Origin: a virus
Lineage: Duplodnaviria > Caudoviricetes
Virus record (IMG/VR): IMGVR_UViG_3300036770_005357
Length of the DNA stretch: 64,000 bases
Reading direction: 5' to 3' (one strand)
Part shown: positions 1,772 to 18,901 of the stretch, in pieces
Numbering within the stretch: the stretch's first letter is position 1
Layout of the letters: the number at the start of each line of letters is the position of its first letter
Position numbers and translations under genes: made by a program
Notes under the pieces: model-generated
The model's input: the letters and a program-made list of their open reading frames with translations, nothing else
Told to the model about the DNA's origin: nothing
Database searches by the model: none

Positions 1772-2433
1772 ACGATACGGTATTAATGATAATGTCCATC
1801 CGTAACATTCAGTCCGTAATAGATTGTAATAATAAATTAAATTGTGAAAAAATTTGGTTCAAAGGATACAAAGAATATGAATTAGCACCAATTATTAATG
1901 ACTTCATAGAAAATTCAAATTTCAAATACTACTTCATCACAAGCGATGACGCCTTATTAAATCATAATCACTTCGAATCATTAAAACATAATCTACAGTT
2001 CTATGATATATTAAGCGCATGGTGCCTAATACGACAAAACGCACACTATACCACCATAGTAAAACCAGAAAAATTCGAAAACTATATTTTTAAACCAAGT
2101 TTTACAACAAGTAAATTCACAAATAATTTTCATACCCATTGCTACAAAACTCACGAAATTAACAGTCTTCCAGATATAATACATACCGCTTTCACCGGTT
2201 GGTGCTACACAGGTATGAAAAAACACATCTGGAAAGAATACCCATTTCAAACTCTAAGTTGGCCATACAGTAGTTCAGATCTGCTCTTCAGTAGACGAAT
2301 AGAATCAGATAAAAAATATAAACAACATATCCTAAAAAAAGCACACGCAATACACCTAAGCCACTTTTATAACAAAAGCTACTTCGACCCATCCACTTGC
2401 TTCAATAATAAAGAAATAGTCAAAACATTCTGA
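1768..2433 (+). CDS. Putative glycosyltransferase-like protein
   Basis: 221-aa ORF with a DxD-like ITSDD motif; cluster context. Confidence 0.4.
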   Translation: MNDTVLMIMSIRNIQSVIDCNNKLNCEKIWFKGYKEYELAPIINDFIENSNFKYYFITSDDALLNHNHFESLKHNLQFYDILSAWCLIRQNAHYTTIVKPEKFENYIFKPSFTTSKFTNNFHTHCYKTHEINSLPDIIHTAFTGWCYTGMKKHIWKEYPFQTLSWPYSSSDLLFSRRIESDKKYKQHILKKAHAIHLSHFYNKSYFDPSTCFNNKEIVKTF

Positions 2434-2435
2434 AT

Positions 2436-2903
2436 ATGATCTTCATTCATCCTACCGCAATAATCGATACACAACCCCAAAATATAGGAGAAAATACAAA
2501 AATATGGGCATTCTCCCATATATGCAAAAATACTACCATAGGTAAAAATTGTGTCATAGGTGAAGGCGTATACATCGGACCCAATGTAACCATAGGCGAT
2601 AATTGCAAAATACAAAACCATAGCCTAATATACGAAGGACTATACATAGAAGATAATGTATTCATCGGACCTAATGTTGTAACCACCAATGATATATTTC
2701 CACGCGCCCTAGGCGACTGGTCCTCAAAATTTAGAAAAACTCTAATAAAAAAAGGAGCAAGTATCTGCGCAAATACTACCATTATCTGCGGCACCACCAT
2801 AGGCGAAAACGCAATGATAGGAGCAGGATCCGTAGTTTCAAAAAATATTAAACCAAATTATATCGCATACGGTAACCCAGCAAGACATGTTAGACCCATA
2901 TAA
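2436..2903 (+). CDS. Hexapeptide-repeat sugar N-acetyltransferase (WbpD/WxcM-like)
   Basis: IHPTAII start, left-handed beta-helix repeats (IGKNCVIGEGVYIG, IGDNCKIQN), C-terminal GAGSVV...GNPAR. Confidence 0.9.
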   Translation: MIFIHPTAIIDTQPQNIGENTKIWAFSHICKNTTIGKNCVIGEGVYIGPNVTIGDNCKIQNHSLIYEGLYIEDNVFIGPNVVTTNDIFPRALGDWSSKFRKTLIKKGASICANTTIICGTTIGENAMIGAGSVVSKNIKPNYIAYGNPARHVRPI

Positions 2904-3210
2904 TATATGCAAATTTCCCATATAAAAAATTTTCCCCACTGCTAAATTACAACCCACTATAAAAAAGTCAAAAAGTACCCCACAAAAACCGCAACAAACA
3001 CATATGCAAAGTTCCCAACAAAAAAACTACCATGTGTGTTGTATGGCTCCCCGCGCGGGGGTGGCGCGGGGTCTTTCCATGTTCAGAACCACTTGACGGG
3101 GCTGCGGGGTGGGGAGGGCCGTCAACTTATATAAAAAGGGTGGAGATATATACCCCCACCCCCGTCAAGCACTTATTTAAGGTACCCCCGCTTGGGGTAC
3201 CCCTAAGCAC

Positions 3211-3729
3211 TTAGTGCCACTCACTGAAGAACTGAGGCTTGCCGTTCCAAGGAAACGCCGTGGAGTAGCTGCTAATCTTAAAGTGGACAGAGCCGTCATT
3301 GTAAACCTTGATACGAGCGGTCTTCACTTCGGTACCGATAGCAGTTTCATCAGGCATACACTCACCGGACATGGGTCCATTGTAGTTACGAGTCTCACCG
3401 ATACTGACATACTTCACGCTATTGGGAAGAACGGCCACGATCTTATAAAAATCCACATTGGTCTGTTCATAACCCCAAGAGCAACTAAAAATATCACCAA
3501 CCTTGACATTAGCCTTAGGCGACTCAGCCTTGGTGACATCGGACTGTCTGACGACGAGGTTGTAGTGAGCGTTCTCGGGAGTGGTGTAGAGCGTACCGTC
3601 ACGCTTGGCCTTCCAGACTCGGCACTTGGTACCGGCGGTGACGACGGTGTTGTAGCTGGTGACGTTGGAGTTGAGGGTGACATAATCACCACGACGAACG
3701 GAGGACTTGGTAGCAGAGGTAGTAGTCAT
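3211..3729 (-). CDS. Phage hypothetical early protein (SWGYEQTNVDFY motif)
   Basis: 172-aa ORF directly after a promoter copy at 3742-3769. Confidence 0.7.
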   Translation of the reverse strand: MTTTSATKSSVRRGDYVTLNSNVTSYNTVVTAGTKCRVWKAKRDGTLYTTPENAHYNLVVRQSDVTKAESPKANVKVGDIFSCSWGYEQTNVDFYKIVAVLPNSVKYVSIGETRNYNGPMSGECMPDETAIGTEVKTARIKVYNDGSVHFKISSYSTAFPWNGKPQFFSEWH

Positions 3730-3990
3730 ATTACGGATAAGAGTGTATCAGGTTTTTTGGTAGTGTCAACAGCTTTTTTATTCGGTATAGTCGGTCATGC
3801 GACTGTTACGGAGGAGGAAGGCTTCAAAGGCGTCCATGTCGGTGGTTTCGTCTTCGGTGTAGATCTCTTCAACGGAGATCCGGACCATATCGTGGAGTTC
3901 GTTGTCGGTGTTGGTGTTGTTGATGTCGTTCATTGTGGGAACAGTGTAGACGAACTGTATGGGAAGTCAAGCCCCTCTTGAACTATTTTT

Positions 3991-4179
3991 TTAGACACCG
4001 GCGACAAATCCAGCCCGCTTGTTACGCTCCCACATCACATCCTCAAGCGTGAACCAAGCTCCATCCCTGCGACGAGGATGATTAGCAACATCAGCTTCCA
4101 GCTTATTTACATAATCTTGATCCACCTCATTCCAACCAAAGCTAGCACATTGATAATAAGTGTCGTTGATACAAACAAT
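3991..4179 (-). pseudogene. Orphaned 3' half of a YodL-like gene (homologous to the C-terminus of 5024..5380)
   Basis: Translates IVCINDTYYQCASFGWNEVDQDYVNKLEADVANHPRRRDGAWFTLEDVMWERNKRAGFVAGV*, with no start codon and an in-frame TAG just upstream. Confidence 0.8.
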
Positions 4180-4221
4180 GTTTTTGTAACTTTTTATCTA
4201 TCTTGGTAATACTTATATCAT

Positions 4222-5052
4222 ATGACTATTACAACACAAGGCGGCATCTATAAAATTGTCAACAAACTAAATGGAAAATATTATGTTGGTAGGACCAAAA
4301 ACTTTAAGAAGAGATGGTATGATCACAGGAAACGATTGCGGAAAAACTGTCACATAAACTCACATTTACAACGTGCGTGGAACAAAGATGGAGAACATTC
4401 ATTTGAATTTGTAATTACGGAAATTATTGATGTCACAATTTGTCATAAAGAAACCGAACAAAAGTATATAGATCAACTTATTGAAGATCGCAAAAATGGA
4501 ATCGACAATAGTTATAACATTAGTGAAAGTTCAGATGGACCAACATTATTCGGTAACAAAAATGGAATGTTTGGTAGAAAACACAGCAATGAGTCCAAAA
4601 ATTTAATGTCTAACAATAGACGAGGTAAAAAACATACCGAAGAAACTAAAAAAATGTGGAGTGAACGTCGAAAAGGAAAACCTTCGTGGAACAAGGGGAT
4701 GGAAATGTCAGAAGAATATCGTAAAAAATTATCTATTATCAGAAAAGGCAGAAGACATTCTGTAGAGACTAAAAGGAAAATTTCGTTATCTCAACTTAGA
4801 GAAAAAAATCACCGATTTGGCAAGCGACCAACAGAAAATCAAATAAACAAAATGGTTGATGTTATAGTTGATAAAACTATTTACACTTGGAAAAATGACA
4901 AGTTGTTACGTACAGAAAATATGACCCGAAGAGATTTTTATAAAAAATACAACATACCAGCATCCAACATATGTGATCTTATTAAAGGAAAAAGAAAATC
5001 TGTTTATGGATGGTATATTGAAACTAGTTCGCCCAACGGGGTTCTCGTATAA
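4222..5052 (+). mobile_element. Free-standing GIY-YIG homing endonuclease with NUMOD3-like repeats
   Basis: GIYKIVNKLNGKYYVGRT, R..H, F.F..E, YN motifs; MFGRKHSNESK/KKHTEETK/RHSVETK repeats; AT-rich and antisense to neighbours. Confidence 0.92.
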
Positions 5053-5380
5053 CAGCATTCAAAGCAAACCACGATCCGTTAATACGATTTGGATGGTTTG
5101 AAACCGCATTCTCTAATTCATTAACTTCTTCGGGAGTAATTTCTTTCCATCCAAGCGATTTACACATATGATATCTGCCATTGATACAAACTACATCTCC
5201 AACGCTGAGTGAACGAATATTGCTATTACGAAATAGTTCACATTCATTAGGCGATCCAGAGTTCCATTGATCAAAGACCATTTCAAGCAGATCGTGGTGA
5301 TCGGTAGCCTTATCGGTTTTGATGACGAAGCTAGCGGTGAACTCATCGGGATAGATGACGGTGATCTTGTTGTTTTTCAT
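5024..5380 (-). CDS. YodL-like domain early protein
   Basis: RSLSVGDVVCING motif; own promoter copy. Confidence 0.55.
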   Translation of the reverse strand: MKNNKITVIYPDEFTASFVIKTDKATDHHDLLEMVFDQWNSGSPNECELFRNSNIRSLSVGDVVCINGRYHMCKSLGWKEITPEEVNELENAVSNHPNRINGSWFALNAVIREPRWAN

Positions 5381-5425
5381 TGTGGAAACAGTATACAGGC
5401 TCTAGTGAGGAAGTCAACAGCTTTT

Positions 5426-5671
5426 TTAACCGAGGACCAAGAAATTCTTCCTTCCATTCTCAGCCACCTCGTTCAGTGCCTCAGCATCCCACTCTCCATT
5501 CATCATTAGAGCTTGCCAACGAATCGTCTTGGCTACAGCCTCCAGAGTCGTGTGTACCGGCTTAAAGCTTGCCAAACCGTATCCGTAGAGGATGGAGTCG
5601 TCCACATTGGACAGATCACGGTTGAAATCCTTGGCGATGGCGAAGGCCTGTTGGAACTGGTTCAGTGTCAT
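5426..5671 (-). CDS. Hypothetical early protein
   Basis: ORF with a promoter-like TTGACG-N17-TACCTT upstream. Confidence 0.6.
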   Translation of the reverse strand: MTLNQFQQAFAIAKDFNRDLSNVDDSILYGYGLASFKPVHTTLEAVAKTIRWQALMMNGEWDAEALNEVAENGRKNFLVLG

Positions 5672-5686
5672 TGTGGATATAAGGTA

Positions 5687-5911
5687 TCAGAAGGGATCCG
5701 ATTCGTCAAGCTGTTCTTTTTCCGATTCACTGAAGATTTCGTCTTGACATTTCTGACAGAGTGCGCTTATATAGTATTCTTCAGCTGAGACTACATCTTT
5801 GAAGGTATCTGCACTTTTACCACAAGAGACACATTGATGAGTTGCTAATGCTAAATTGAAGCTTCTACCGAAGAAAGACAGACTGAACTCATCTCGTATG
5901 TCTATGTACAT
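5687..5911 (-). CDS. Small Zn-binding protein (CxxC...CxxC)
   Basis: CVSCG...CQKCQDEIF. Confidence 0.6.
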   Translation of the reverse strand: MYIDIRDEFSLSFFGRSFNLALATHQCVSCGKSADTFKDVVSAEEYYISALCQKCQDEIFSESEKEQLDESDPF

Positions 5912-6486
5912 AAAATAAACTGGGGTTTTATAATATATAGGATCACCCCAAACCTTTTTATATTGTTAAGCCTTGATTGGCTTTTCAGGCATCTTGGCCT
6001 TATCAGCCCAATCAAATGAGAAGATACCGAGTAGTGTACAAAGTGTAGACAATCCTGTTTGATCTGTATAAATCCAAGCCAATCCAAAGAAGATGGCGGG
6101 ACTACAAATAGTAAAGATTGTTAGCAGTACCTTACCGTAATATTCAATTTTGTCAAACATAGTATTTCCTTTCAGTTTTTGTTTTGTTTTATTCTCCCTC
6201 CTGATTATCATTATTCAGTGACTTACGCAAATCTCGCTTGTTTCTAGTACGATCTCGTTGATGCTTAATTTGCTTTTCCTTACGCCTAGCCCGTATCTTA
6301 TGTTTATCACTCATCGTAGTTCCTTCCCCATTTGTTCTTACGGTTATAAACCTTCTTACTAGCTACAATCCTCATACGAGGATCCATGTTCCACTCTTTC
6401 CTAACTTTGATCTTCATCATAAACAGTTTATATTAAAGTTTTGGTTTGTCAAGCCTATGTTGATCGTAGTTTACAATCAAAAGTAA

Positions 6487-6510
6487 AACATAGCGTTAAT
6501 ATGCGCTATG
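6487..6510 (-). terminator. Rho-independent terminator
   Basis: CATAGCG-catattaa-CGCTATG followed by TTTT on the minus strand. Confidence 0.6.
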
Positions 6511-6519
6511 GCAACCCTT

Positions 6520-6726
6520 TTACATACACTGATATTGTTCACTCTGGGTCCAGTTATTGTACCAATTCTGATAATCCTCCTTTACTTGATTATGAGGTAC
6601 CTGCTTGACAATCGTCTTGCTACCCCATACATGTCCGAGGTTCACGGTATTCTTGAACACAGCCCTAACTCGCATATGTACCTTACCGTACTGAACCACA
6701 TCACCAACAACCAATTGCTTATTCAT
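6520..6726 (-). CDS. Hypothetical early protein
   Basis: 68-aa ORF after a promoter copy. Confidence 0.65.
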   Translation of the reverse strand: MNKQLVVGDVVQYGKVHMRVRAVFKNTVNLGHVWGSKTIVKQVPHNQVKEDYQNWYNNWTQSEQYQCM

Positions 6727-6809
6727 ATTGTGAGACTAGTCTACACCAACCACAGGAGATGTCAAGCGGGGTTTTACAGGATCACCCCAAACCTTTCCTA
6801 CCGAACCAC

Positions 6810-7376
6810 TTACACCGCCTCATACACAAGCGAAGGCTTTCCACGACCTTCAGCCTTCTCTTTTCCTACAACAGTGACAACCCCCGATTTTACCCACTGC
6901 CTCACAACAGGATACAACTGAGGCTGATTGTAACCTGTAGAACTTACAAGAAACTTCATCGTAAAGCGTTTGCCTGTAGGAGGTTGTACATCCACCTTAG
7001 CCTTTGGCCGTCTACCCTTGTTGGGTTTACCGGTTCTGGCAGCCTCTTCCTTTGCGTCTTGGCTGTCCTTGGATTTCTTTAGGAGCTGTTCGTACCGTTC
7101 CTCAGCCGCTTCCTCTGTACGACAGTCAAAAGCGATTTTACCGAATGCGGCACTGCCGGGATATTGGATACGATCTTCCTTTTCTACAGCGCCGCCTGGA
7201 AGAGGAGTGCCTTTTGCGATAAACTTTCCAATGAAGACTTCGTAACCCTTGAGGGTACCGTCCATGCGTTCACGTCGGTACATATATACATTACCCTCTT
7301 TCTTTATTTGGATAAATGTATTGTCACCGACACCATCACAGTTCTTGACAAACTTCTTTGGTAGATCCTTGATCAT
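6810..7376 (-). CDS. Early protein with probable C-terminal winged helix-turn-helix
   Basis: C-terminal helices followed by a GRGKPSLVY wing motif; ATG 6 nt after the -10 box. Confidence 0.55.
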   Translation of the reverse strand: MIKDLPKKFVKNCDGVGDNTFIQIKKEGNVYMYRRERMDGTLKGYEVFIGKFIAKGTPLPGGAVEKEDRIQYPGSAAFGKIAFDCRTEEAAEERYEQLLKKSKDSQDAKEEAARTGKPNKGRRPKAKVDVQPPTGKRFTMKFLVSSTGYNQPQLYPVVRQWVKSGVVTVVGKEKAEGRGKPSLVYEAV

Positions 7377-7406
7377 AAAAACAGTGTATCAGGGTTTTAG
7401 GGTCTG

Positions 7407-7703
7407 TCAAGCCTCGTCGTTGGAATTGAATGGGGCGACCTTGTAGGTTGTATCAAGGTACTTGCCTTTGGGAAATTCGTCTGTAAACTCTTCAATTGGG
7501 TCATATTCGGGCTGAAAGTCTGGGAACTTGGCTTTGATTTCAGCATGGATTTGATTCATAAAATCAATCTTTTGGCTGTACAGCGCAATATCTTCGGGAG
7601 AAGGAGTTGGTAGATTTGCTACATATTCGGACAGTTCCTTATGATACTGTTCGTCCATAGCTTGTTCTTGTTCGGGCGTGAGTTCTTGGTTATCTTGGTT
7701 CAT
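7407..7703 (-). CDS. Acidic hypothetical protein
   Basis: 98-aa ORF. Confidence 0.55.
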   Translation of the reverse strand: MNQDNQELTPEQEQAMDEQYHKELSEYVANLPTPSPEDIALYSQKIDFMNQIHAEIKAKFPDFQPEYDPIEEFTDEFPKGKYLDTTYKVAPFNSNDEA

Positions 7704-7707
7704 ATAA

Positions 7708-8043
7708 TTAATGGGAGGTAGAGTTAGTGTTACAGTTAGTTACATTAGAAACAGTAGCATTACATGCGCAAATCTTCAAGCATTTCATTTGCGGTTGAAA
7801 GACGAATTGATCATTACCCCAAACAGATTCATTGAATGTCTTGATCAGGCCGTAATCAATATCAAAGTAAGTGACATTATTCATTTGATCTTTGAAGATG
7901 ATGCCTTTGAATGCTGTATTGAGGTTTTTGTAGAAACCGACTGGGCCTTTATCAGCGATTGAATAACCGTTACATTGGAATGGCAGGTTATCTTTACTAT
8001 TGGTTGGTTCAAACTTAAAAGTAGCGGTTTTATTATTTCTCAT
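7708..8043 (-). CDS. Hypothetical early protein
   Basis: 111-aa ORF after a promoter copy. Confidence 0.55.
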   Translation of the reverse strand: MRNNKTATFKFEPTNSKDNLPFQCNGYSIADKGPVGFYKNLNTAFKGIIFKDQMNNVTYFDIDYGLIKTFNESVWGNDQFVFQPQMKCLKICACNATVSNVTNCNTNSTSH

Positions 8044-8078
8044 ATCGTGGGAACAGTCTACAGGCTTCTACAGGGAAG

Positions 8079-8273
8079 TCATGGAGTATCTTGATCTAGT
8101 TTAATATGATAATGTGAATTAACCGCATCAGCTAACATTTCAATTGCGTTAATCAAATGGCTCAATGTGGATTCCACGGCGGGATCAGTAGGATGTTCGG
8201 CTCCGATACGATAACAAGATTCTTTGGCTTGATCCAACGCTTTGTCAAAAGCTTTTAAATTAATTTCGGTCAT
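8079..8273 (-). CDS. Hypothetical coiled protein (true start probably MTEINLK)
   Basis: The track start at 8318 coincides with the -35 box; the ATG at 8273 follows the promoter. Confidence 0.55.
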   Translation of the reverse strand: MTEINLKAFDKALDQAKESCYRIGAEHPTDPAVESTLSHLINAIEMLADAVNSHYHIKLDQDTP

Positions 8274-8386
8274 ATTTAATTTACTTTTTAAGTCTACCAG
8301 CTTTTTTCTAGAAGTCAATGGGAAAAATATAACAAGTTTTCAGGATCTCACTCACATTCACCATATGGTGATAGCGATATGTTCCC

Positions 8387-8454
8387 TATAAGTCCCTAGG
8401 AATTGAACCTAGTCTCCTGTAATTACCGGCGCATTACCCGAATGCTGAACTTAC
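8387..8454 (-). ncRNA. tRNA-like element with aberrant anticodon arm
   Basis: Acceptor GTAAGTT/GACTTAT, D-like GCA-TTCGGGTAA-TGC, T arm CTAGG-TTCAATT-CCTAG; anticodon arm shortened and mismatched. Confidence 0.55.
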
Positions 8455-8481
8455 GCGTCTATCTGTACCTTGTTATTTATA

Positions 8482-8553
8482 TAGTATACAGAGGATTTGA
8501 ACCTCTCATTCACCACTGGTGATCAGCTCAGTTTAGAATGACCGCCTGTATAT
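8482..8553 (-). ncRNA. Second tRNA-like element with aberrant anticodon arm
   Basis: T arm AGAGG-TTCAAAT-CCTCT, acceptor TATAC/GTATA, TCACC-AGT-GGTGA hairpin in place of an anticodon arm. Confidence 0.5.
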
Positions 8554-8571
8554 ATTATACAAAAAAATCTA

Positions 8572-8729
8572 TGTTTGAGGCAAGAGCATTTCTACATATT
8601 CAGCGGCAGTTTATTAATGGTGTAACATTAACACTTGCATCACAGATATAATTACACTCATATCTGATCTAACGCTAGATAAGTATCTCTCTGTTGCATC
8701 TCAATTACCTTTCGGTAACACCCCAAACA
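8572..8729 (-). ncRNA. Unclassified structured RNA, about 158 nt
   Basis: Closing stem TGTTTGGGG/CCTCAAACA; internal TTACC-GAAA-GGTAA, CAGATAT/ATATCTG and TTAATG/CATTAA hairpins. Confidence 0.5.
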
Positions 8730-8735
8730 AAATTG

Positions 8736-8831
8736 TTTTGGATTCATGCGGTGTATTGGTTATTTTCCGATCCGCAGTGTCCATCCCCTAAACCAATAGG
8801 TGACACCTTTCATTAGCGGTTGAACCCAAAA
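8736..8831 (-). ncRNA. Unclassified structured RNA with kissing loops, 96 nt
   Basis: Closing stem TTTTGGGTTCA/TGAATCCAAAA; hairpins GTGTC/GACAC and TGCGG/CCGCA; loops TTGGTT and AACCAA are complementary. Confidence 0.6.
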
Positions 8832-8852
8832 ATTATTAAAAGAACTAAAATT

Positions 8853-9061
8853 GTTGATATAGAGGGATTGATTACCCTCACGAAGTTTGGTGGTTGCCCT
8901 TGCTAAAGTTTCTTTCAAGTTATTTCCTTGTGTATGTTTGCTTTAACTCTTCTGTATTATTTCAAATACATTCAGATGATTTTTCATTGAGTTTAACCCC
9001 AACAAAGTCAGACTATTGTCATTAGTCCTATCACCTTGCGTCTATTTCCGCCATATATCAA
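8853..9061 (-). ncRNA. tRNA-Leu-like ends enclosing a long insertion
   Basis: 5' TGATATA-TGGCGGAAATAGACGC and 3' GAGGG-TAATCAAT-CCCTC-TATATCA resemble tRNA-Leu halves; about 150 nt lie between them. Confidence 0.55.
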
Positions 9062-9079
9062 AAAGAACAAAAAAATTGG

Positions 9080-9198
9080 TTTGTTAGCTTCGATGACCGC
9101 ATTTAACTGCCTGTATTATACCCCTACTGGGCGATTACCGACAATCGTGTCGGCATCATTCTCCGTCTACTCATATAATACCATCTATAACTAACAAA
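9080..9198 (-). ncRNA. Unclassified structured RNA immediately 3' of tRNA-Asp
   Basis: Closing stem TTTGTTAGT/GCTAACAAA; nested TATTATA/TATAATA, CCGAC-ACGATT-GTCGG and GCA-GTTAAA-TGC. Confidence 0.5.
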
Positions 9199-9200
9199 AG

Positions 9201-9276
9201 TGGCGGTCTATACGAGATTCGCACTCGTTACTGAATCGTGACAGGATTCTATGATAAACTCATTCAACAATAGACC
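9201..9276 (-). tRNA. tRNA-Asp(GTC)
   Basis: GGTCTAT/ATAGACC acceptor, GAATC-CTGTCAC-GATTC anticodon arm, ACGAG-TGCGAAT-CTCGT T arm, G73 and encoded CCA. Confidence 0.9.
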
Positions 9277-9284
9277 AAAATCTT

Positions 9285-9382
9285 AAGATTGACATCCAAG
9301 TATTTATCAGTGAATCGTAACCCACTGCCCTCTATTTCTTGGTTTTCCGGATAACAACCGGATGAACTTAATCGTCAATCTT
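9285..9382 (-). ncRNA. Unclassified structured RNA, 98 nt
   Basis: Closing stem AAGATTGAC/GTCAATCTT; CCGG/CCGG, CCAAG/CTTGG and CAGTG/CACTG stems; promoter-like TTTACA-N16-TAAGAT just upstream. Confidence 0.55.
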
Positions 9383-9438
9383 GAAAATATCTTATCAGAA
9401 CTTTCTGACTTGTAAAGAACTTTTTTTAAAATCTTTGG

Positions 9439-9530
9439 GGTTGAGGGTGACTGCGCCAGTCGGAGCGCTCTCTTTTACAGTTAAGTAAACCGTGCGGACT
9501 GTTCCCCTACACCAAGTCACCACCTCAACC
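9439..9530 (-). ncRNA. Unclassified four-way-junction RNA starting at a promoter TSS
   Basis: Closing stem GGTTGAGG(T)GGTGACT/AGTCACCCTCAACC with three hairpins; CAGTC and GACTG loops complementary; begins 8 nt after the -10 box at 9539-9544. Confidence 0.65.
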
Positions 9531-9764
9531 TTGAAAATAGTCTACCAGCTTTTTTCTAGAAGTCAACAGATTTTTTAACGGTACTTCAGGCGGATGAAGA
9601 TTTCCTTGTTCTCCTCCAAAACCGTGTCAAGAATCTTGCCGCAGAACTCGCGCCATTCAGTCTCGGTAACTTGTCCGGTTTGGAACTTGCGGAACATGAT
9701 GTCGTATTCGTTCTTCATCGTGAAAACAGTTTACCAGCTTTCTTGGAGAAGTCAACCGCTTTTT

Positions 9765-10166
9765 TTAAAATCCAGCGTATTCCAGTGTATTTCTGATTTT
9801 GGAGTTAATAAACCCCGTTACCTCAACAAATCCATTATCAATCTCTTTCGTTTCAATCTTGAAAGTGAGTTTGGTTTTGGCGAATGGCTTATTTGTTTGA
9901 TGATCTAATGGCGTCGTGGTCAACAAAACCTTGCCGTCATACTTATTCATCAAATAATCATTTTCACTATCTTCACCATCCAAATTCAAGAAGATCGGCC
10001 TGCCATTCTCAATACCAGAAGCAAATGTAATATCAAATAACTTCTCAACAATCTCTACACTGCCACGATTACCGAAAATTTCATCTGTTAACTCCTGTAG
10101 AGTTTCTTGATTATCTTTTTCATTGGAAACTGTAAAGTCAAAATAATAAGTATGATTTGTCTTCAT
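9765..10166 (-). CDS. Hypothetical early protein (start MKTNHTY)
   Basis: ATG 9 nt after a promoter -10 box. Confidence 0.65.
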   Translation of the reverse strand: MKTNHTYYFDFTVSNEKDNQETLQELTDEIFGNRGSVEIVEKLFDITFASGIENGRPIFLNLDGEDSENDYLMNKYDGKVLLTTTPLDHQTNKPFAKTKLTFKIETKEIDNGFVEVTGFINSKIRNTLEYAGF

Positions 10167-10212
10167 CGTGAAAACAGTGTACACCAACCACAGAAGAAGT
10201 CAACCGCTTTTT

Positions 10213-10398
10213 TTACTTTTTCTTGGCTTTCTTGACTGTAGGTTTAGGCTTGCCAGCACCAGCAGCAGCGTCCACAACACCCTGATCGTAACGACCCAGA
10301 TTCTTAAGCACCGTTCCAATGTTTATGCCAGCCCGGACTTGTTCATAAGCAGTGTAAGCGGCCAATTCGTTCTCAGCTTCAGTTCGGTAATCATTCAT
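10213..10398 (-). CDS. Small hypothetical protein with Lys-rich tail
   Basis: ORF after a promoter copy. Confidence 0.6.
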   Translation of the reverse strand: MNDYRTEAENELAAYTAYEQVRAGINIGTVLKNLGRYDQGVVDAAAGAGKPKPTVKKAKKK

Positions 10399-10431
10399 CG
10401 TGGAAACAGTATAGACTACCCATAGGAGATG

Positions 10432-10677
10432 TCAAGCACCAACATACTCAATTTTATTATTAATCTTAACCTCATTACCCAACTTGTAAATCTTCTTAAT
10501 CCACTCAGTACCTCGTACAGCAATAATCTTATCCAACTCCTCACGGGTAACCAACATCATTACATCATACTTCCTATTACCAATACCACGCTGACCATCA
10601 TCATGTTCCTCATAAATCACCACAAACTCAGGATTGACATTCTTGTTCCGATTCATAGGATTCTTCGTGTTCTTCAT
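10432..10677 (-). CDS. Hypothetical early protein
   Basis: Flanked by two 40-bp near-identical promoter copies (10396-10435, 10675-10714). Confidence 0.6.
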   Translation of the reverse strand: MKNTKNPMNRNKNVNPEFVVIYEEHDDGQRGIGNRKYDVMMLVTREELDKIIAVRGTEWIKKIYKLGNEVKINNKIEYVGA

Positions 10678-10748
10678 CGTGGAAACAGTATAGACTACCC
10701 ATAGGAGAAGTCAAGCGGTACATCAAAAAAAGTTTCAGAAAATATCTG

Positions 10749-10840
10749 TTGACCCCACCGGAATTTCTGGTATAGTCTATCCAGATCGGCTGAACAAGCT
10801 AGGATAGGGGACCAACGCCTACCATAATACCGTTAAGGTT
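10749..10840 (+). repeat. Copy A of a plus-strand promoter plus two-hairpin element
   Basis: TTGACC-N16-TATAGT then ccagatcggctgaacaagctaggataggggaccaacgcctacc...cgttaa. Confidence 0.75.
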
Positions 10841-10991
10841 AAAGCTAAACCGCATGGCTTTGCATAGGTTGCGTTCTAGGAGCCAGACCCCTACCGACAC
10901 CCTACCTACGCACCAAAAGTGCGCCTATAGACCGCCTAGGCGCACCGGCAACCGTTCTAGGAGGATCATTTCGTTGAGCTCACCGATATGA

Positions 10992-11264
10992 TCAAACCAG
11001 CATATGGGCTAGTGGATGATAGGATACTTCCTTACGGCTATAAATATTCTTATCATAGTCTGTAGCTTCAATGACGAAAAGACGCTGGGAATACTTAATA
11101 AGACAATAGTTGTACCTAAATAAACTATTCAAATTAAACAACAATTCACCCAACTTAATCTTCACTTCACTATCCTCTACATCACATACACTATGCAAAT
11201 GATCGGTATCATTACGAACACGATCAGTAGATGTAGGATATTTTACAGCCAATATCTTTGTCAT
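10992..11264 (-). CDS. Hypothetical protein
   Basis: 90-aa ORF downstream of the helicase. Confidence 0.5.
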   Translation of the reverse strand: MTKILAVKYPTSTDRVRNDTDHLHSVCDVEDSEVKIKLGELLFNLNSLFRYNYCLIKYSQRLFVIEATDYDKNIYSRKEVSYHPLAHMLV

Positions 11265-11276
11265 ATAATTAATATA

Positions 11277-12650
11277 TTAAATCACCCGAACACTAAATGT
11301 CAAGTCACCATCATTCAACGATTCCAAATTATTAAGCTTGGCTTGAACCCTTCTACAAGCATCTTCCTCAATCGTATTAGCAGCAAATAGTACCTTCTGT
11401 ACACAAGGAGTCTTACCTTCAGCCCTATGAATTCTCCCAAGTGCTTGAAGCATATTGATAGCACTAAAACTAGGACTCAAAATACTATGACGAGGATGAT
11501 TGCCATTCAAGTCATGAAGACTCACACCAGCATTACCCGCTGCCAAATTAGCAATCATAATTCGCTTACGATCCGCTTGAAAATCAGCAATGTCAGCCTG
11601 ACGAGCCTTATCACTCTGTCCACCAACAATACGAGCAACACTCTGACTGTATGTATTGTTTTTACCCAATTGATTAATAATTGCGTCAACAGTATCTGTA
11701 AAATTTACAAATACAACCGGACTGATTCCCTCATCATACAAATCCTTGATCATATCAACCATCGTAGGTACCTTAAGTAACTCAACCTTACGACGAGCCT
11801 TAGTCATAATAGCAAAGTGATGTTCGCTATAATTGGAACTTGACTCTTCAAGTTCAGCCAGTTCTTGTTCCATGATTTCATAGATACGATTGATCTTATC
11901 AGTATTCGTACCCATGTCAAATACATCAGCAATAACCCTATTGTCCGGAAAGATCTTGTCAAACATCTTTCTAGTCATACGGCTAGCCACTTTAAACCGG
12001 TTGAACAGCTTGTCGTGAATATTAGCCATGGCCTCAATCGCTTGACGACTACCAATATCAATTTGATAACCACCAAACCTACCAGTATAAGCACCGCTAT
12101 CAAAGATAAAGCTACGGAAACTCACCAGATTATGAAGCGTCGTAGCAAATCCAAAACTCTTCATCTCCAATGGATTAGTAGCAGCGGTAGCACTCAAAAG
12201 AAGCAGCTTATAGTGGTTCTTCTTGAGAGCAATGAGAAAGTCACTATTCTTGCTATCAAATCCTTTACACTTATGACACTCGTCAATAATGACAAGCGCA
12301 TTCTTGGGAAAGTGGATTTGGTAATCGTCCGGGGTATTGTCTCTACCATTGAGAAAGGAGAGATGTTCAGTATTACCCCGAGTCAATTTCTCAAAGTTTA
12401 TGACGACATGTGCTTTGATACCGAATTCCTTCAGTACATTATGCCAATTGGGAATAACCACTTTGGGACATACAACAACCACAGGGCTATTGAAGTGCTT
12501 GGCGATCCACGCGCCAACATAACTTTTTCCACATCCTGTTTCACTAAGATCTACAGCCGTGCCATTGACATAGAGGCTATCAAGTAGTTTTACTGCATGT
12601 TCCGCTTGAGGACCAATCAGTTTTGAGAAGTCAAATGAAGTAACGCTCAT
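11277..12650 (-). CDS. SF2 (SNF2-like) DNA helicase
   Basis: ETGCGKS Walker A, IIDECH, LSATA, GVSLHD, QALGRIHR motifs. Confidence 0.9.
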   Translation of the reverse strand: MSVTSFDFSKLIGPQAEHAVKLLDSLYVNGTAVDLSETGCGKSYVGAWIAKHFNSPVVVVCPKVVIPNWHNVLKEFGIKAHVVINFEKLTRGNTEHLSFLNGRDNTPDDYQIHFPKNALVIIDECHKCKGFDSKNSDFLIALKKNHYKLLLLSATAATNPLEMKSFGFATTLHNLVSFRSFIFDSGAYTGRFGGYQIDIGSRQAIEAMANIHDKLFNRFKVASRMTRKMFDKIFPDNRVIADVFDMGTNTDKINRIYEIMEQELAELEESSSNYSEHHFAIMTKARRKVELLKVPTMVDMIKDLYDEGISPVVFVNFTDTVDAIINQLGKNNTYSQSVARIVGGQSDKARQADIADFQADRKRIMIANLAAGNAGVSLHDLNGNHPRHSILSPSFSAINMLQALGRIHRAEGKTPCVQKVLFAANTIEEDACRRVQAKLNNLESLNDGDLTFSVRVI

Positions 12651-12768
12651 CGTTTACCTACTGTACCACGGGGTTATAAAAAGTCAAGCCTCCCACGCAA
12701 CTTTTTTCACTTTTCCTCTACTTTTACTCCTCTACTTTTATATATATTAGTAGAGGAAATTATAATAT

Positions 12769-13647
12769 ATGGACAACAATATAAACCAAACTATAATAGA
12801 AAAAGTAGCAATCAAAAGCGTGGCAATATATAAAGCAATAGCTATGTTACCACCACCAGAAATAAAGGACTTATGGGCAGAAAACAATTATACAAAACAG
12901 ACGCAGAACGACTTGAAGCTAGACGCGAAAGACAATTGCGTTACTATGAAAAAAACAAAAACAGAATTAACGCCGGTAGATTGGAAAGATATTACAAATC
13001 AAAACAAGAGCGGGATTTATAAAATAATAAACAAGATTGACGGCAAGTATTATGTAGGTAGAAGTTCCAATATTAAAAAAAGATGGAGATCTCATCGTAA
13101 TCTTTTAAGACAAAACAAACACAGTAATTGTCACCTACAAAGGGCTTGGAATCGTGATGGGGAATCGTCATTTGATTTTATTTTAGTTGAAGAAGTAATA
13201 CCGGATAAAAATATTCTAATAGATGTTGAAACTCGGTACATTAATAAGTTTGTAAATGATAGGAAAAACGGCATTGACGATTGTTACAACTTAAGCTTAA
13301 GTGCGGTTACAGGAAGTGTACCCGGTAATCAACACAGAAAAGGAAAACCTCATTCAATTGAAGATAGATTAAAAATATCTAAGGGACTGTTAGGCAACAC
13401 GAATACTAAAGGTAAATCTATTTCCGAAATACACAGACAAAAAATTATAATGAATGCGCCTAAAGGCAAAAATAATCATGCATTCAATAATAAAATTTAT
13501 AACTTCTTCAACAAAAATACAGGCGAAAGTTTTAGTGGTACACTCAGTGAACTTTTACAAAAAGAAAATATAAAAATAAATTCAGCGTTTCATAGAGTTA
13601 TCCGTGGCGAAAGAAATCATTACAAAGGATGGATATATAAACCCTAG
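12769..13647 (+). mobile_element. GIY-YIG homing endonuclease (probable real start MKKTKTEL near 12946)
   Basis: SGIYKIINKIDGKYYVGRSS; catalytic domain closely resembles the 4222 enzyme. Confidence 0.9.
12873..13025 (+). CDS. Small basic MGRK-type ORF overlapping the GIY-YIG 5' end in another frame
   Basis: Manual translation MGRKQLYKTDAERLEARRERQLRYYEKNKNRINAGRLERYYKSKQERDL*; homolog at 18970. Confidence 0.65.
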
Positions 13648-13653
13648 AATGTC

Positions 13654-13845
13654 TCAATCCTCTGTATCAGCTTTTTCTACAGTGGGAGAGATGATGGGGA
13701 TACGGACAGTGAAGATGATGCGGCTAATTTCGTTGAAGACGATCTTGACAAAAGTGACCGTCAACAAATAAATCAACAATACAAAGGCAATTGCCATACA
13801 GTAATTGCTGATACTAGATGTAATATGTTTAAAAAACTCAGTCAT
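13654..13845 (-). CDS. Small membrane protein
   Basis: Hydrophobic central helix. Confidence 0.5.
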   Translation of the reverse strand: MTEFFKHITSSISNYCMAIAFVLLIYLLTVTFVKIVFNEISRIIFTVRIPIISPTVEKADTED

Positions 13846-13872
13846 ATTAATTATGAATAGTGTTCTTGATTA

Positions 13873-14157
13873 TCAAAACCAGTAATACATTTCTATAGCT
13901 TCAGAACAGCGTGCTTTTGACCACAAAGCAGCAGACTTTTTCGCTATTGATTTGGTATTGTCACTTTCATCATATTCAAAATAATTCCGTTTACCACCGG
14001 GAGAAAATGCAACATATTGCATGTTATCAACATCGTGCCAATACTTTCCTTTAGCAAGTTGTTTTGCTTGTTTTACTTCAACCTTAGTAGCAAATTTACC
14101 ACTATATGGATTATATGGATTTATACAACCCGCTATAAACTTCTGTCGGCTAGTCAT
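13873..14157 (-). CDS. Hypothetical protein
   Basis: 94-aa ORF. Confidence 0.55.
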   Translation of the reverse strand: MTSRQKFIAGCINPYNPYSGKFATKVEVKQAKQLAKGKYWHDVDNMQYVAFSPGGKRNYFEYDESDNTKSIAKKSAALWSKARCSEAIEMYYWF

Positions 14158-14192
14158 ATCTTTTTATAGAATAAGGGGTATCCGCCTAAATG

Positions 14193-14519
14193 TCAAGCAA
14201 CCTTTGCTTCAATCTCAGCCAGTTTCTCAGCGGGAATCAAGCTAATAATTTGACGGGAATACTTAGGAAGCTTACGAAAAGCAATAACAAGTTGTTTAGG
14301 ACTAAGTGTGCGACCCTTGTTAATCTGTTCAGCAAACGAACTTAGTATAAAAGCATCAGTACCGTTGTATCCAACGCCATTGTCGTGTCCCGTGTTTTGA
14401 GCAATCTGCTCGTCAGTCGTCTGCCTCTCCCAGAGCTTCACGATAGCCCTCGTAGCCCAAGTCGGATTGGAGGAGAGCTGCTGCTTCACATATTCAACCA
14501 CTTTCGGATTCAGTTTCAT
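14193..14519 (-). CDS. Conserved phage hypothetical protein
   Basis: EQ...NGVGY...DAFILSSFAEQ...LSPKQ pattern; own promoter. Confidence 0.65.
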   Translation of the reverse strand: MKLNPKVVEYVKQQLSSNPTWATRAIVKLWERQTTDEQIAQNTGHDNGVGYNGTDAFILSSFAEQINKGRTLSPKQLVIAFRKLPKYSRQIISLIPAEKLAEIEAKVA

Positions 14520-14578
14520 CGTGGAAACAGTCTACAGGCTTCTAGGGAGAAGTCAAGCGGTAAAAACAAAAAAACTAA

Positions 14579-14605
14579 CAGAAAATTAATCCGTTAGCTT
14601 TTACA
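14579..14605 (-). terminator. Terminator hairpin, duplicated at about 15120-15146
   Basis: AGCTAACGG-attaatttt-CTGTTAG followed by a T tract on the minus strand. Confidence 0.65.
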
Positions 14606-14624
14606 AAAATATGTTTATAACTTG

Positions 14625-15008
14625 TTATTTACCAAATATTCCAATTTTTCCCATTTGTGATTGAAGAACTGGATTTATTTTCTTCAAAACATCTTTGCCC
14701 GTTGGAATGACTCCACCCCACGACCCTGAATATTTCACTTTTACACGATCATTTCCATCCGGTTCAATTTTTATCATAAAATCTGGGGATTTTTTGGATG
14801 TTATTATGATAGTATTTATGGCAGTATCAATACGCACAAGTAAGTCTCTGTCTATGAGAAGAATGTTACCTTTAAGATCATAAAACAATCTGTCAATTAT
14901 AGATTCAATGTTTGATCCACCAGAAGTACTACGAGTGTCTGATGTATCATCTTCATTTAGGTTTAGAAGACATTCTTTGATTAACATTTTTAGTTGGGTT
15001 CTAGTCAT
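14625..15008 (-). CDS. Late-type protein with MTRTQLKMLIKE tag
   Basis: AT-rich ORF, TATTTATA motif upstream (15031-15038). Confidence 0.65.
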   Translation of the reverse strand: MTRTQLKMLIKECLLNLNEDDTSDTRSTSGGSNIESIIDRLFYDLKGNILLIDRDLLVRIDTAINTIIITSKKSPDFMIKIEPDGNDRVKVKYSGSWGGVIPTGKDVLKKINPVLQSQMGKIGIFGK

Positions 15009-15180
15009 AATTTATATATTGGTTATTTGTTATAAATATACGAAAAAAAAAAATAATAAAAAAATTTACTCGTACAGTTTACTAGCTTTTTTGGGGAAGT
15101 CAAGCGGTAAAAACAAAAAAGCTAACAGAAAATTAATCCGTTAGCTTTGTAATTAATTATAATGATTTAAGTTTAATCCA

Positions 15181-15465
15181 CTACCCGAACAGATCGAAAT
15201 CATCAAAATTATCAACATACCAACTAAAATGACGGGCAAAAGAACGAAAAATGTCAGCCGCTTTGGTTTTTGCTTTTTGAGCTAGATCGGAAAATTGTTG
15301 TTTTTTGACAGGATCGTTTGTTTTCTTACTCAATTCACGATATTCATCTTCCTTTTTTTTCAAAGTAGAATAAGCTAATTTTGCTTTGTTAATCGTGGAT
15401 TTGTCATGATCACTATTTTCAATAATTACTTCTTTGATAAGTTCTTTAAGTTCTTTTTTAGTCAT
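15181..15465 (-). CDS. Late-type protein with MTKKELKELIKE tag
   Basis: TATTTATA motif at 15470-15477. Confidence 0.7.
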   Translation of the reverse strand: MTKKELKELIKEVIIENSDHDKSTINKAKLAYSTLKKKEDEYRELSKKTNDPVKKQQFSDLAQKAKTKAADIFRSFARHFSWYVDNFDDFDLFG

Positions 15466-15520
15466 ATACTATAAATATATGAGAAAAAAATAATTACAGA
15501 TTATAAAACTTTTATAGATA

Positions 15521-15742
15521 TTATTTTGCGTAATGTATTTTATTAGTGCAATTACCTTTATGTATTAATGTCCAGCCACCTATTTTACCGTTATAAGTCT
15601 GAATATACTCACAACCATCTATAACTTTATTTATATTGGTAGGTATCATCATAAATATAATAACAGAAATAATAATAATGCCCAAGTAAATCAAAGTTTC
15701 ATGCGTTATAAATGCTTTGTTTTTCATAGTTGCTTCTTTCAT
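15521..15742 (-). CDS. Small membrane protein, paralog of 40963..41157
   Basis: TM helix then IDGCEYI...LIHKGNCTNKIH, matching IDNCQYI...LTHKGNCTNNIH. Confidence 0.65.
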   Translation of the reverse strand: MKEATMKNKAFITHETLIYLGIIIISVIIFMMIPTNINKVIDGCEYIQTYNGKIGGWTLIHKGNCTNKIHYAK

Positions 15743-15800
15743 CACGAGAACAGTCTACAGTTTTCTAGGGAGAAGTCAAGCCCCCTTTTTTGGGGGAAAT

Positions 15801-15878
15801 TGGTGGGCCTTGAAGGATTTGAACCATCACTCTCAGCAATTATGAGTTGCGTGTTTTAACCAATTAAACTAAAGGCCC
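15801..15878 (-). tRNA. tRNA with CAT anticodon, probably Ile2 (or Met)
   Basis: GGGCCTT/AAGGCCC acceptor, CTCATAA loop, TTCAAAT T loop, ACCA end; own TTGACA-N17-TACAAT promoter. The acceptor resembles Ile2 tRNAs. Confidence 0.85.
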
Positions 15879-16083
15879 GTTATCTAAAAACTATTGTATC
15901 AAACAACTATGCTTTTGTCAAATACTCAAAGTTCGGTATAACAAACACTCACTGTACGACAATCGCCTTTGTAACGCTTGTACGCTTTTTGTTCTGCTTG
16001 ATTATGGTTGGCAGCCTTAATGTAGCCAACTTCTACGCCGTTGTAATAAACAATAAATGTCTTCATATCTTTATCAGTAGTTA

Positions 16084-16281
16084 TCAATAATCATATCCAC
16101 GCTCAATAGCATCAGCACAACTATTGCAAATAGCATACTGAGGCTGTATGTTCACCATACGATCACATCGCTTACACCGCTTAGCAACATTCGTACGCTG
16201 ACACTTATGATAGTAATCAACCATCTCAGGCTCATCCATGTTGCTCCAAGTGCCATAATTGTCGTCACAGTAGGTTCTCAT
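16084..16281 (-). CDS. Small Zn-ribbon protein
   Basis: CKRC...CNSC. Confidence 0.6.
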   Translation of the reverse strand: MRTYCDDNYGTWSNMDEPEMVDYYHKCQRTNVAKRCKRCDRMVNIQPQYAICNSCADAIERGYDY

Positions 16282-16336
16282 TGTTTTAATAGTCTATCAG
16301 CTTTTTTTAATTTGTCAACAGCTTTTTTTAGAGAAA

Positions 16337-16436
16337 GTATCAATTCGGTTGCATCACACCTAATTTATTCTGCAATGCTTTGAGGACAGGCTCTCCATCC
16401 TCATCCGCTAGGCTACGGATTCCACCGAATTGACAC
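16337..16436 (-). ncRNA. Stand-alone cloverleaf-like ncRNA, 100 nt
   Basis: 13-bp closing stem GTGTCAATTCGGT/ACCGAATTGATAC with three hairpins; promoter TTGACA-N16-TATTTT directly upstream; no ORF. Confidence 0.7.
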
Positions 16437-16464
16437 CACCAAAATATCAGACTTTTTTAATCTG

Positions 16465-16695
16465 TCAAGCCTTCGGACACTGTTGAAACTCAAGACTCGG
16501 CGCAATCTTCTCCATCACCCTCATCGCTTCGTCCCGACTGTACACCTGAAAAAACAACTCTCCATCTCCACGATACAACCTCCACACCAAACGCTCACGG
16601 TTGTACATCACATACCCAACAATCACCCCTTGGTTGACCAGCGCATCCACCGGTTTTCCGTCAATCTCAGTCACCGTCCAGTTCATCGTTTTCAT
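16465..16695 (-). CDS. Hypothetical early protein
   Basis: ORF after a promoter copy. Confidence 0.6.
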   Translation of the reverse strand: MKTMNWTVTEIDGKPVDALVNQGVIVGYVMYNRERLVWRLYRGDGELFFQVYSRDEAMRVMEKIAPSLEFQQCPKA

Positions 16696-16729
16696 TACGG
16701 GAAACAGTCTACCAGAAATCTTCAGTCTG

Positions 16730-17005
16730 TCAAGCCCTCACCGTCAACTCGTTCAGCTGTTGAATGGTAGCCCCGCTCATCTCAACCGCCCAATGAACAT
16801 GGTTCATTGCCTCCTTCTTCTTGATTGAATGACCCAGAAACTTAGCACCGTCACCAGTTCCATGATACATTCGCCACCAGTTCTTGCCGTGCTTAGTATC
16901 AACAGGCTTATCAATCATACCCACAGCCTCACCCGCTTGATTGAAAGCGACATGAAGGTTAGGAATCGTGCTCTTGATCTTCTTCCAAGTGATGTAAGTA
17001 ATCAT
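16730..17005 (-). CDS. Hypothetical early protein
   Basis: ORF after a promoter copy. Confidence 0.6.
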   Translation of the reverse strand: MITYITWKKIKSTIPNLHVAFNQAGEAVGMIDKPVDTKHGKNWWRMYHGTGDGAKFLGHSIKKKEAMNHVHWAVEMSGATIQQLNELTVRA

Positions 17006-17415
17006 ATTACGGGATACAGTGTACCAGCTTTTTTTAAGCTGTCAAGCGCTTTTCGGGCTGATAAGTGACGATAGGCGCTGGTTGGATATTCATCGCCGTC
17101 ATCTTGTCAACATAATCACACCACAACAGATAGTTTCGCTGGCCAGACTTCTTGGTTTTGTTCTTCTTCATATTACGGGTAAGAGTGTATCAGGTTTTTT
17201 TCGGTTGTCAAGCCCCTTCAGTCCTCGTCAATCATGGAGTCGTCCACCTCAAAGCTGCCCTCAATGTAGCTGCCATCCTCAGGCAATGGAGCACCCTTAG
17301 CCTCATGTATTGCTTCAGCTACACTGTCAGCCTGCACTTCTACATAACCATACATCTGCCAAACAACAGGTACACGATAGGTTTTCATTGCGGTCATATC
17401 TTTATTTATTTAATT

Positions 17416-17691: not shown

Positions 17692-17731
17692 ATCTTTATT
17701 TATTTAACGGTTAATAGTCTATCAGCTTTTT

Positions 17732-18443: not shown

Positions 18444-18477
18444 CGTGAGACAGACTCTAACAGCTTTTTTTAAAGTG

Positions 18478-18866: not shown

Positions 18867-18901
18867 ACTTTTTTAACTTTTCTTCGTCGTTTTATTCCAC
18901 G

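Follow-up and report, generated by a model that had tools for sequence, protein, structure and literature searches.

A row of stem-closed RNAs exchanged as cassettes in a large uncultured freshwater phage

The tRNA operon of phage T4 contains, next to its tRNAs, the stable RNAs known as species 1 and 2 (rnaC and rnaD), the function of which is unexplained after fifty years, and the tRNA regions of T5-type phages are similar. In layout this operon is the closest described counterpart of the array analysed here, an untranslated row of nine stem-closed RNA units and a trailer with a tenth hairpin, located at 9566-8321 on the minus strand of a 64,000-nucleotide (nt) stretch of DNA (the window) from the IMG/VR virus record IMGVR_UViG_3300036770_005357. 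Both loci are phage-encoded, promoter-driven and untranslated, tRNA and non-tRNA RNAs stand head to tail with short spacers in both, and homing endonuclease genes are found near both; the T4 operon is matured by host RNases, whereas for the array processing is what we infer. On the other hand, non-tRNA RNAs dominate here (about nine, against one optional and atypical tRNA) and belong to many unrelated structural families. The units of the array are also swapped as cassettes among close relatives, several of them have promoters of their own, and there is no sequence similarity to GenBank phages.

Three further kinds of RNA are relevant for comparison. In RNA-based counter-defence (pseudo-ToxI, RNA anti-CRISPRs), small phage RNAs, which are accessory and fast-changing, imitate an RNA of the host or of a defence system and engage the protein that partners it; these RNAs are repeats of a known defence RNA, unlike the array units, and we know of no defence-system RNA that resembles them. 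The bacterial Y RNAs (YrlA), which are bound by Ro60, are modular, with the ends paired in a long stem and another module that mimics tRNA (PMC4201824). Their likeness to the array extends to the occurrence of several side by side and of some in phages, but most of the array modules are not tRNA-like. The large ornate RNAs GOLLD and ROOL are associated with phages and adjacent to tRNAs (bioRxiv 10.1101/2024.12.08.627333; PMC5737381); like the array they are phage-borne, lie near or around tRNAs and occur in lake metagenomes, yet they are single large self-assembling RNAs and not a row of independent, exchangeable small ones. Searches of the literature for phage arrays of tRNA-like RNAs, for the stable RNAs of T4 and for tRNA decoys yielded no description of such arrays.

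We read the array as an early stable-RNA operon, a reading to which we give a probability of about 0.6: the host would process its transcripts into exonuclease-protected RNAs, which would act in trans as mimics, decoys or scaffolds. Phage genomes are annotated almost wholly by their proteins.

Units of the array and their folds

An earlier note, made from the letters of the window alone, had described about eight structured RNAs between 8387 and 9566, laid out as nine units that mostly close on their own terminal stems. All nine are present at the positions given there, on the minus strand, and each is closed in its minimum-free-energy fold by a stem of 7-14 base pairs (bp); to these a tenth hairpin module, in the trailer at 8386-8321, has to be added. 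In the order of transcription, the features of the array are the following.

9566-9539 (minus): promoter P1, TTGACT-16 nt-TAGACT with a TG-extended -10 (promoter scan); unit A begins about 8 nt downstream
9439-9530 (minus): unit A, a cloverleaf-like four-way junction of three hairpins on a 14-bp closing stem that has one bulge
9389-9416 (minus): internal promoter P2, TTTACA-16 nt-TAAGAT with a TG-extended -10 (promoter scan)
9285-9382 (minus): unit B, closed by its own stem and containing two internal hairpins
9201-9276 (minus): tRNA-Asp (GUC), called by ARAGORN (GTC), with encoded CCA and G73
9080-9198 (minus): unit C, a conserved scaffold of nested helices with one hypervariable hairpin
8853-9061 (minus): unit D, 209 nt, multi-helix, with an 8-bp closing stem, an adjacent stacked hairpin and conserved unpaired stretches
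8736-8831 (minus): unit E, a three-way junction closed by a stem of 11 bp
8572-8729 (minus): unit F, 158 nt, multi-hairpin, with a 9-bp closing stem
8482-8553 (minus): unit G, a tRNA mimic with an acceptor-like stem (5-7 bp), a 5-bp T stem and the canonical loop UUCAAAU
8387-8454 (minus): unit H, a tRNA mimic made up of a 7-bp acceptor, a D arm whose loop contains GG, a 5-nt variable region, a 5-bp T stem and the loop UUCAAUU
8386-8321 (minus): trailer, a tenth stem-closed hairpin (about 43 nt), then a conserved CCUGAAAACUUGUUAU and a U run

The strand is fixed by the promoters, by the orientation of the T arms and by the many G.U pairs, which would become A.C if read on the opposite strand. 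The two promoters, of sigma-70 type, that had been placed at 9539-9566 and about 9390-9417 are recovered by the promoter scan at 9566-9539 and 9416-9389, both on the minus strand, and the accompanying terminator scan found no intrinsic terminator in 8000-10000; the tRNA-Asp and the RNA units thus share strand and promoters with no terminator in between. A near-identical copy of P1, likewise with a TG-extended -10, lies just past the trailer at 8318-8291, where it is the promoter of the next gene, and the first unit of the relatives' arrays is preceded by the same promoter type. P2 is reused nearly verbatim upstream of differing RNA units in the related loci L126 (781-835 and 1147-1193), L135 and L143. 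The spacer between the -35 and -10 of P2 holds a TCAGA-N4-TCTGA palindrome, which may be an operator for a regulator. The linkers between the units are short and AU-rich, with the typical motif ...ACAAUUUU..., and the trailer, which follows unit H in all loci, is predicted to adopt the same nested-hairpin fold in two sequence types that differ in their inner sequence; it is probably the 3' end of the operon.

As had been claimed, there is no credible open reading frame (ORF) in the array: the ORFs that overlap it are at most 52 amino acids (aa) long and are unconserved. Since, in addition, the alignment of the relatives of unit C contains indels of 1, 4 and 8 columns, the array is non-coding.

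Compared with dinucleotide shuffles, five of the units fold better than expected (z-scores of -3.9 for D, -3.9 for C, -3.6 for B, -3.3 for F and -2.5 for A). For E, G, H and the tRNA-Asp the score is about -1.7, which is not significant alone, and therefore the support for these four must come from comparison with relatives. The units are mutually unrelated, and each returns only itself when compared with the window by blastn, so that they are not tandem copies of a short repeat. A ToxI-like or CRISPR repeat array was considered and rejected, given these self-matches and the differences in both sequence and length (68-209 nt) between units.

The absence of any recognised family, which the earlier note had remarked on, holds for the array and for seven relatives' arrays alike. 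Searched with Rfam 15, the array has zero matches at gathering score. Relaxing the cut-off to E<=10 adds nothing beyond chance matches to lncRNA and snoRNA models of eukaryotes and a hit of unit H to the tRNA model RF00005, at 15.6 bits against a gathering threshold of 29; with this tRNA model unit G and the other units give nothing at E<=10, and in the seven relatives likewise no family was matched. The single true tRNA of the earlier account stands as an ARAGORN call, the only one made in the array, in which G and H go uncalled. It has a proper 7-nt anticodon loop (CUGUCAC), but the T loop is odd (UGCGAAU), the D loop lacks GG, and the Rfam tRNA model does not report it even at E<=10; it is moreover optional, being present in 4 of 29 related loci, always between B and C, and called by ARAGORN in the three that hold a whole copy. 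One of its variants has an A.C mismatch in the anticodon stem.

Units G and H share with tRNA an acceptor stacked on a 5-bp T stem with a UUCAA(A/U)U loop, which is of the UUCRANN type, and H has in addition a D arm with GG. This elbow is what RNase P, RNase Z and the CCA-adding enzyme recognise in a tRNA. Unlike tRNA, neither unit has a 7-nt anticodon loop on a 5-bp stem or an encoded CCA: in G a single long arm (5+4 bp, 11-12-nt loop) replaces the D and anticodon arms, and in H the anticodon arm consists of 5 bp (one mismatch) and a tetraloop. G and H are tRNA-derived mimics and not wholly new folds, and the same is loosely true of A and D, whereas B, C, E and F have no tRNA features. A related observation comes from unit X2 of the relative L126 (657-790), where two T-arm-like hairpins with the loops UUCAAUU and UUCAAAU are combined in one stem-closed RNA, which ARAGORN calls neither tRNA nor tmRNA.

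Exchange and conserved pairing among relatives

Homologs of the array were obtained by pattern scans of IMG/VR, which gave three related contigs (L007, L008 and L126; L010 is the L008 record cut anew), and by a metagenome scan with a 22-mer from unit H, which gave 26 freshwater contigs, one of them, Ga0214923_10000007, 295 kb long; the comparison set thus comprises 29 related loci. A looser IMG/VR pattern, which combined promoter and start, matched more than 100 loci, most of them unrelated, and was discarded. The phage group is widespread, as 31-mers of the array occur in 14 DNA runs from at least nine freshwater, aquatic or subsurface studies. Neither a blastn search of 8250-9800 against 50,697 GenBank phage records, which returned no match, nor the only protein match of the nearby helicase, a weak one (29% identity) to a Micrococcus phage, points to a cultured relative or a host. 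The 17-mer of the H T arm is found in tRNAs of many unrelated phyla and is uninformative about the host or the mimicked tRNA, and a 21-mer has zero matches. In the distant helicase-bearing contigs L002-L006, ARAGORN found no comparable tRNA/RNA array.

Across the 29 loci the content of the array is combinatorial. Whole blocks, with identities of 79-100%, are gained, lost and reordered, as in the orders A-D'-E-G-H, A-B'-E-F-G-H, X1-B-Asp-C-X4-G-H, X1-C-Z-X4-G-H and X1-X2-(small ORF)-B'-X3-C-D-X4-G-H, and the breakpoints fall in the linkers, so that the unit boundaries are confirmed independently of the folds. Unit G is present in 24 loci, F occurs in the window and L007 only, in identical copies, E has been transferred as an intact cassette, and in none of the 29 loci is any unit tandemly repeated. 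At least seven more unit families are known only from the relatives; with these counted, there are at least ten structurally supported RNA families that are absent from Rfam. The array is thus a variable set of independent cassettes and not one fixed system. The suggestion of an undescribed RNA-based system is supported: every test by which the earlier note could have failed went its way, with homologs present, compensatory changes in B, C, D, G and H, several folds better than shuffles, no Rfam family matched and very deep RNA cover. It has to be modified in so far as the cassettes vary independently and G and H (more loosely A and D) are derived from tRNA.

This exchange bears directly on the idea that the array forms a single giant ornate RNA of 1.2 kb, comparable to GOLLD or ROOL, which would fold or assemble as a unit. 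Such RNAs would be in keeping with a freshwater phage, an embedded tRNA and a long, ORF-free, helix-rich stretch. However, the Rfam models of GOLLD and ROOL have no match in the array at E<=10, each unit closes on itself, the internal promoter splits the array, close relatives differ in the subsets and order of their units, and RNA depth differs 100- to 1,000-fold between neighbours; we consider a single giant RNA to be extremely improbable.

The conservation of structure was measured as the percentage of alignment cells that are paired in the predicted fold, with the fold slid along the alignment as a control; for unit D the comparison is between the window copy and one 79%-identical variant.

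Unit H: 96% of cells paired (slid 31-54%); 2 compensatory pairs, in the acceptor stem
Unit G: 98.5% of cells paired (slid 29-58%); 3 compensatory pairs (T stem 2, long arm 1)
Unit C: 97.9% of cells paired in 11 distinct variants (slid 24-52%); 4 compensatory pairs, in the variable hairpin
Unit D: 95% of cells paired (slid 38-43%); 13 of 49 pairs changed on both sides, in seven helices

Unit B has two compensatory pairs among three variants, and in unit E three variants show only single changes that are compatible with pairing (G.U to A-U, G-C to G.U). Several unpaired stretches of D are identical in the two variants. The short third arm of H is likewise conserved, and in one variant its single mismatch is restored to a pair. 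A further member of the relatives' families is found elsewhere in the window: the segment 16342-16430 (minus), which stands alone among early protein genes with its own promoter at about 16470-16441, is 82% identical to unit Y1 of L010, a family that lies inside the relatives' arrays. Y1 is a four-way junction with a long closing stem, and there are five compensatory pairs across its five sequences. Because of these compensatory pairs (H 2, G 3, C 4, D 13, B 2, Y1 5) and of the 95-98% pairing against 24-58% in the slid controls for C, D, G and H, the structure is shown, as judged from the comparison of sequences, to be under selection in B, C, D, G, H and the Y1 family.

Unit C deserves separate mention. 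Its hairpin at 9135-9160 (minus) is hypervariable: close relatives have at least five different stem sequences there that show no relation to one another, whereas the rest of the unit is nearly invariant; the identical paired changes at 9139/9152 and 9143/9148 recur in a variant assembled from RNA. This pattern suggests diversifying selection or a swappable specificity element.

The same data can be held against the view that the locus is a decaying tRNA gene cluster, in which the units would be functionless pseudogenes or remnants of phage tRNAs with insertions. Some features are what decay would leave behind: G and H retain T arms and acceptor stems, the ends of A and D are loosely tRNA-like, a tRNA-Asp lies in the middle, H has a weak tRNA score of 15.6 bits and one tRNA-Asp variant is mismatched in the anticodon stem. 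Yet compensatory changes keep the stems in variants that differ by up to 21%, and unit A shows 99-100% identity throughout its six loci, in which the other shared parts are 84-98% identical. The altered anticodon arm of H is conserved, with the mismatch repaired in one variant, the units have strong promoters of their own and are among the most abundant RNAs of their libraries, and B, C, E and F have no tRNA-like features. Functionless remnants are thus a very improbable explanation.

Another possibility is that the units are cofactors like the Y RNAs, with an end-paired long stem and an effector domain, and tether a Ro60-type protein or an enzyme of RNA repair or decay. The combination of a terminal stem with a tRNA-like module does resemble YrlA (PMC4201824), and in some jumbo phages an encoded Ro/TROVE protein is accompanied by a tRNA-like partner (PMC7824862). 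However, the Rfam models of Y RNA and YrlA have no match in the window array at E<=10 or in two relatives' arrays at E<=5, neither TROVE nor RtcB was found in two related phage fragments, and a Pfam scan of 20 ORFs of the window, among them five of the six that are longer than 400 aa, gave no TROVE match. The array moreover adjoins small early genes and has no conserved protein gene beside it. We therefore regard a Y-RNA-like role as improbable.

RNA abundance and joined ends

RNA from the array was sought in contigs of four RNA libraries, each from a different study; three are river metatranscriptomes and the fourth is a cDNA library from freshwater. Aligned to 7000-11500, these contigs cover 8208-9566 only. 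In run X15, a library of 285 Mb, the depth is 8,777 for H, about 1,600-2,100 for G, about 1,100 for C and about 1,800 for B and for a contig in which B is joined straight to C, as in strains that lack the tRNA, whereas D has 29 and F and the tRNA have 4 each. If phage DNA were present at these depths, its genome alone would account for more sequence than the library contains, and the signal is therefore very abundant RNA and not phage DNA. The letters that flank the mapped parts of the contigs match linkers or neighbouring units of the DNA loci, so the RNA derives from these phage arrays. The array RNAs thus rank with the most abundant RNAs of several river metatranscriptomes.

The earlier note had expected discrete transcripts. 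The very high depth of the array in all four libraries is in line with this, and the 100- to 1,000-fold differences between adjacent units strongly suggest discrete RNA species, whose ends and strand lie outside the resolution of contigs. Multi-unit transcripts are present as well, as a 498-nt RNA contig spans D, G and H. A joint from 9198 to 9286, which skips the tRNA, occurs in all four runs; since in the DNA locus L135 unit B is followed by C with a near-identical short linker, this joint is a strain allele and not splicing.

Some of the RNA contigs join a unit to itself. For unit D the 3' end is joined to its own 5' end in X15 (8850 to 9065) and in the second run, X16 (8854, then five letters, to 9067), and a contig of unit F likewise joins its own 3' end to its 5' end (8572, then four letters, to 8733).

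It is possible, though tentative, that circles are formed from some of the modules, D and F at least. The RNA would be cut some 4 nt beyond either side of the closing stem and joined by a phage or host RNA ligase into a dumbbell-shaped circle that is out of reach of exonucleases, as an extension of the stable-RNA operon. D is represented in X15 by two contigs, 141 and 135 nt long, which share 30 nt at either end and so form a closed cycle of 216 nt; the junction contig has a depth of 25.7 against 29 for the body, where two tandem copies predict about half. The D-to-D joint is seen again in X16, with a slightly different junction, and the F-to-F joint likewise. For D in X15 and for F the junctions consist of a 3'-flank piece and a 5'-flank piece, 4+4 nt outside the stems, unlike every genomic linker seen; none of the 29 DNA loci has a unit in tandem, and IMG/VR contains no instance of the D-D junction pattern.

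On the other hand, the contigs could also come from tandem copies that differ by single-nucleotide polymorphisms, or from template switching during reverse transcription between abundant molecules with defined ends. The junction depth in X16 is a quarter of that of the body, and the F contig, at a depth of 4, has a terminal overlap of 20 nt where a clean cycle at k=31 would give 30 nt. The most abundant units, H, G and B-C, show no self-joints, and no ligase gene was found in the related fragments searched. As the DNA contigs number five with D and two with F, tandem alleles could also have escaped sampling. Slightly less probable is the broader idea that the phage makes dumbbell circular RNAs (D of about 216 nt, F of about 166 nt) and that the array is a swappable library of exonuclease-proof tRNA-mimic or decoy RNAs for host takeover. 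We know of no description of natural small circular RNAs, other than introns, from a bacterial virus, and the D and F joints are a checkable lead to such RNAs.

Proposed function and surroundings of the array

In the stable-RNA operon that we favour, host RNA polymerase would start at P1 and P2, at the closing stems of A and B, and read through about 1.2 kb of modules. The host would then make RNase E-type cuts in the AU-rich single-stranded linkers, where the sites at the 3' junctions fit the preference of RNase E, and RNase P and RNase Z would cut at the tRNA-Asp and at the mimics G and H. With the 5' and 3' ends locked in a stem of 7-14 bp, the RNAs would be shielded from exonucleases and accumulate. 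G and H would then offer an acceptor/T-arm elbow without an anticodon, and the other units conserved loops on rigid junction scaffolds. Acting in trans, these RNAs may serve as mimics, decoys or scaffolds for host proteins that bind tRNA or other RNA, either defence nucleases or processing enzymes, for the purpose of host takeover or counter-defence. The anticodon-less elbow mimics, in particular, could be natural decoys or competitors for proteins that recognise the shape of tRNA.

The likeness to counter-defence and host-takeover systems is drawn from the turnover of the cassettes, from their individual promoters and from the hypervariable hairpin on a conserved scaffold. The cassettes lie in a fast-changing early region, which is where phages keep functions of this kind. 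RNA-level manipulation of the host by environmental phages is thereby testable, with the mimics G and H and unit C as clear candidates.

Several points weigh against the stable-RNA operon. Units A, E and F have no informative variation for the testing of pairs. The RNA evidence consists of assembled contigs, so that discrete ends are deduced, and the contig that joins B and C is equal in depth to B and C, which means that some linkers are uncut. The uneven depth reflects in part the composition of strains, as units differ in the number of strains that carry them, and since the flanking genes vary among strains, the zero cover of the flanks is weak evidence and was not counted. Finally, the Ro60/TROVE, RtcB and RNA ligase families were not found in four related viral fragments (13-67% complete), and no partner protein, host or defence system is known for the array.

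Besides the helicase, the gene content of the window includes virion genes, GIY-YIG homing endonucleases and an ammonium transporter. Short minus-strand genes, each with a sigma-70-type promoter, fill the window from 2,000 to 20,000, and the region around the array is probably an early region with one promoter per cassette. Two GIY-YIG homing endonuclease genes, at 4222-5052 (plus) and 12769-13647 (plus), flank this region of early cassettes and may contribute to their exchange; the tRNA region of T4 holds a similar endonuclease, SegB.

Two further candidates in the window were not retained. The motif AGTTCTTT was considered as boxA-like, but its 10 matches in the window against 3.7 expected, a number reached by 1 of 100 shuffles, amount to a weak enrichment, and it was dropped. 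The stretch 10700-10995 (minus), which is GC-rich and non-coding and follows the ORF at 10992-11264, is more than 95% conserved in the relative L001, with one short segment rewritten; the structured RNA suspected from that alignment was rejected (z-score of -0.6 against shuffles, no Rfam match).

A tRNA-Met at 15801-15878 (minus) contrasts with the atypical tRNA-Asp of the array: it is canonical, with 61 bits in Rfam, and is a solitary gene that has its own promoter and a GC hairpin resembling a terminator. The ammonium transporter gene, at 49636-51093 (minus), is full-length (Pfam Ammonium_transp, E 8.5e-114) and constitutes an auxiliary metabolic gene.

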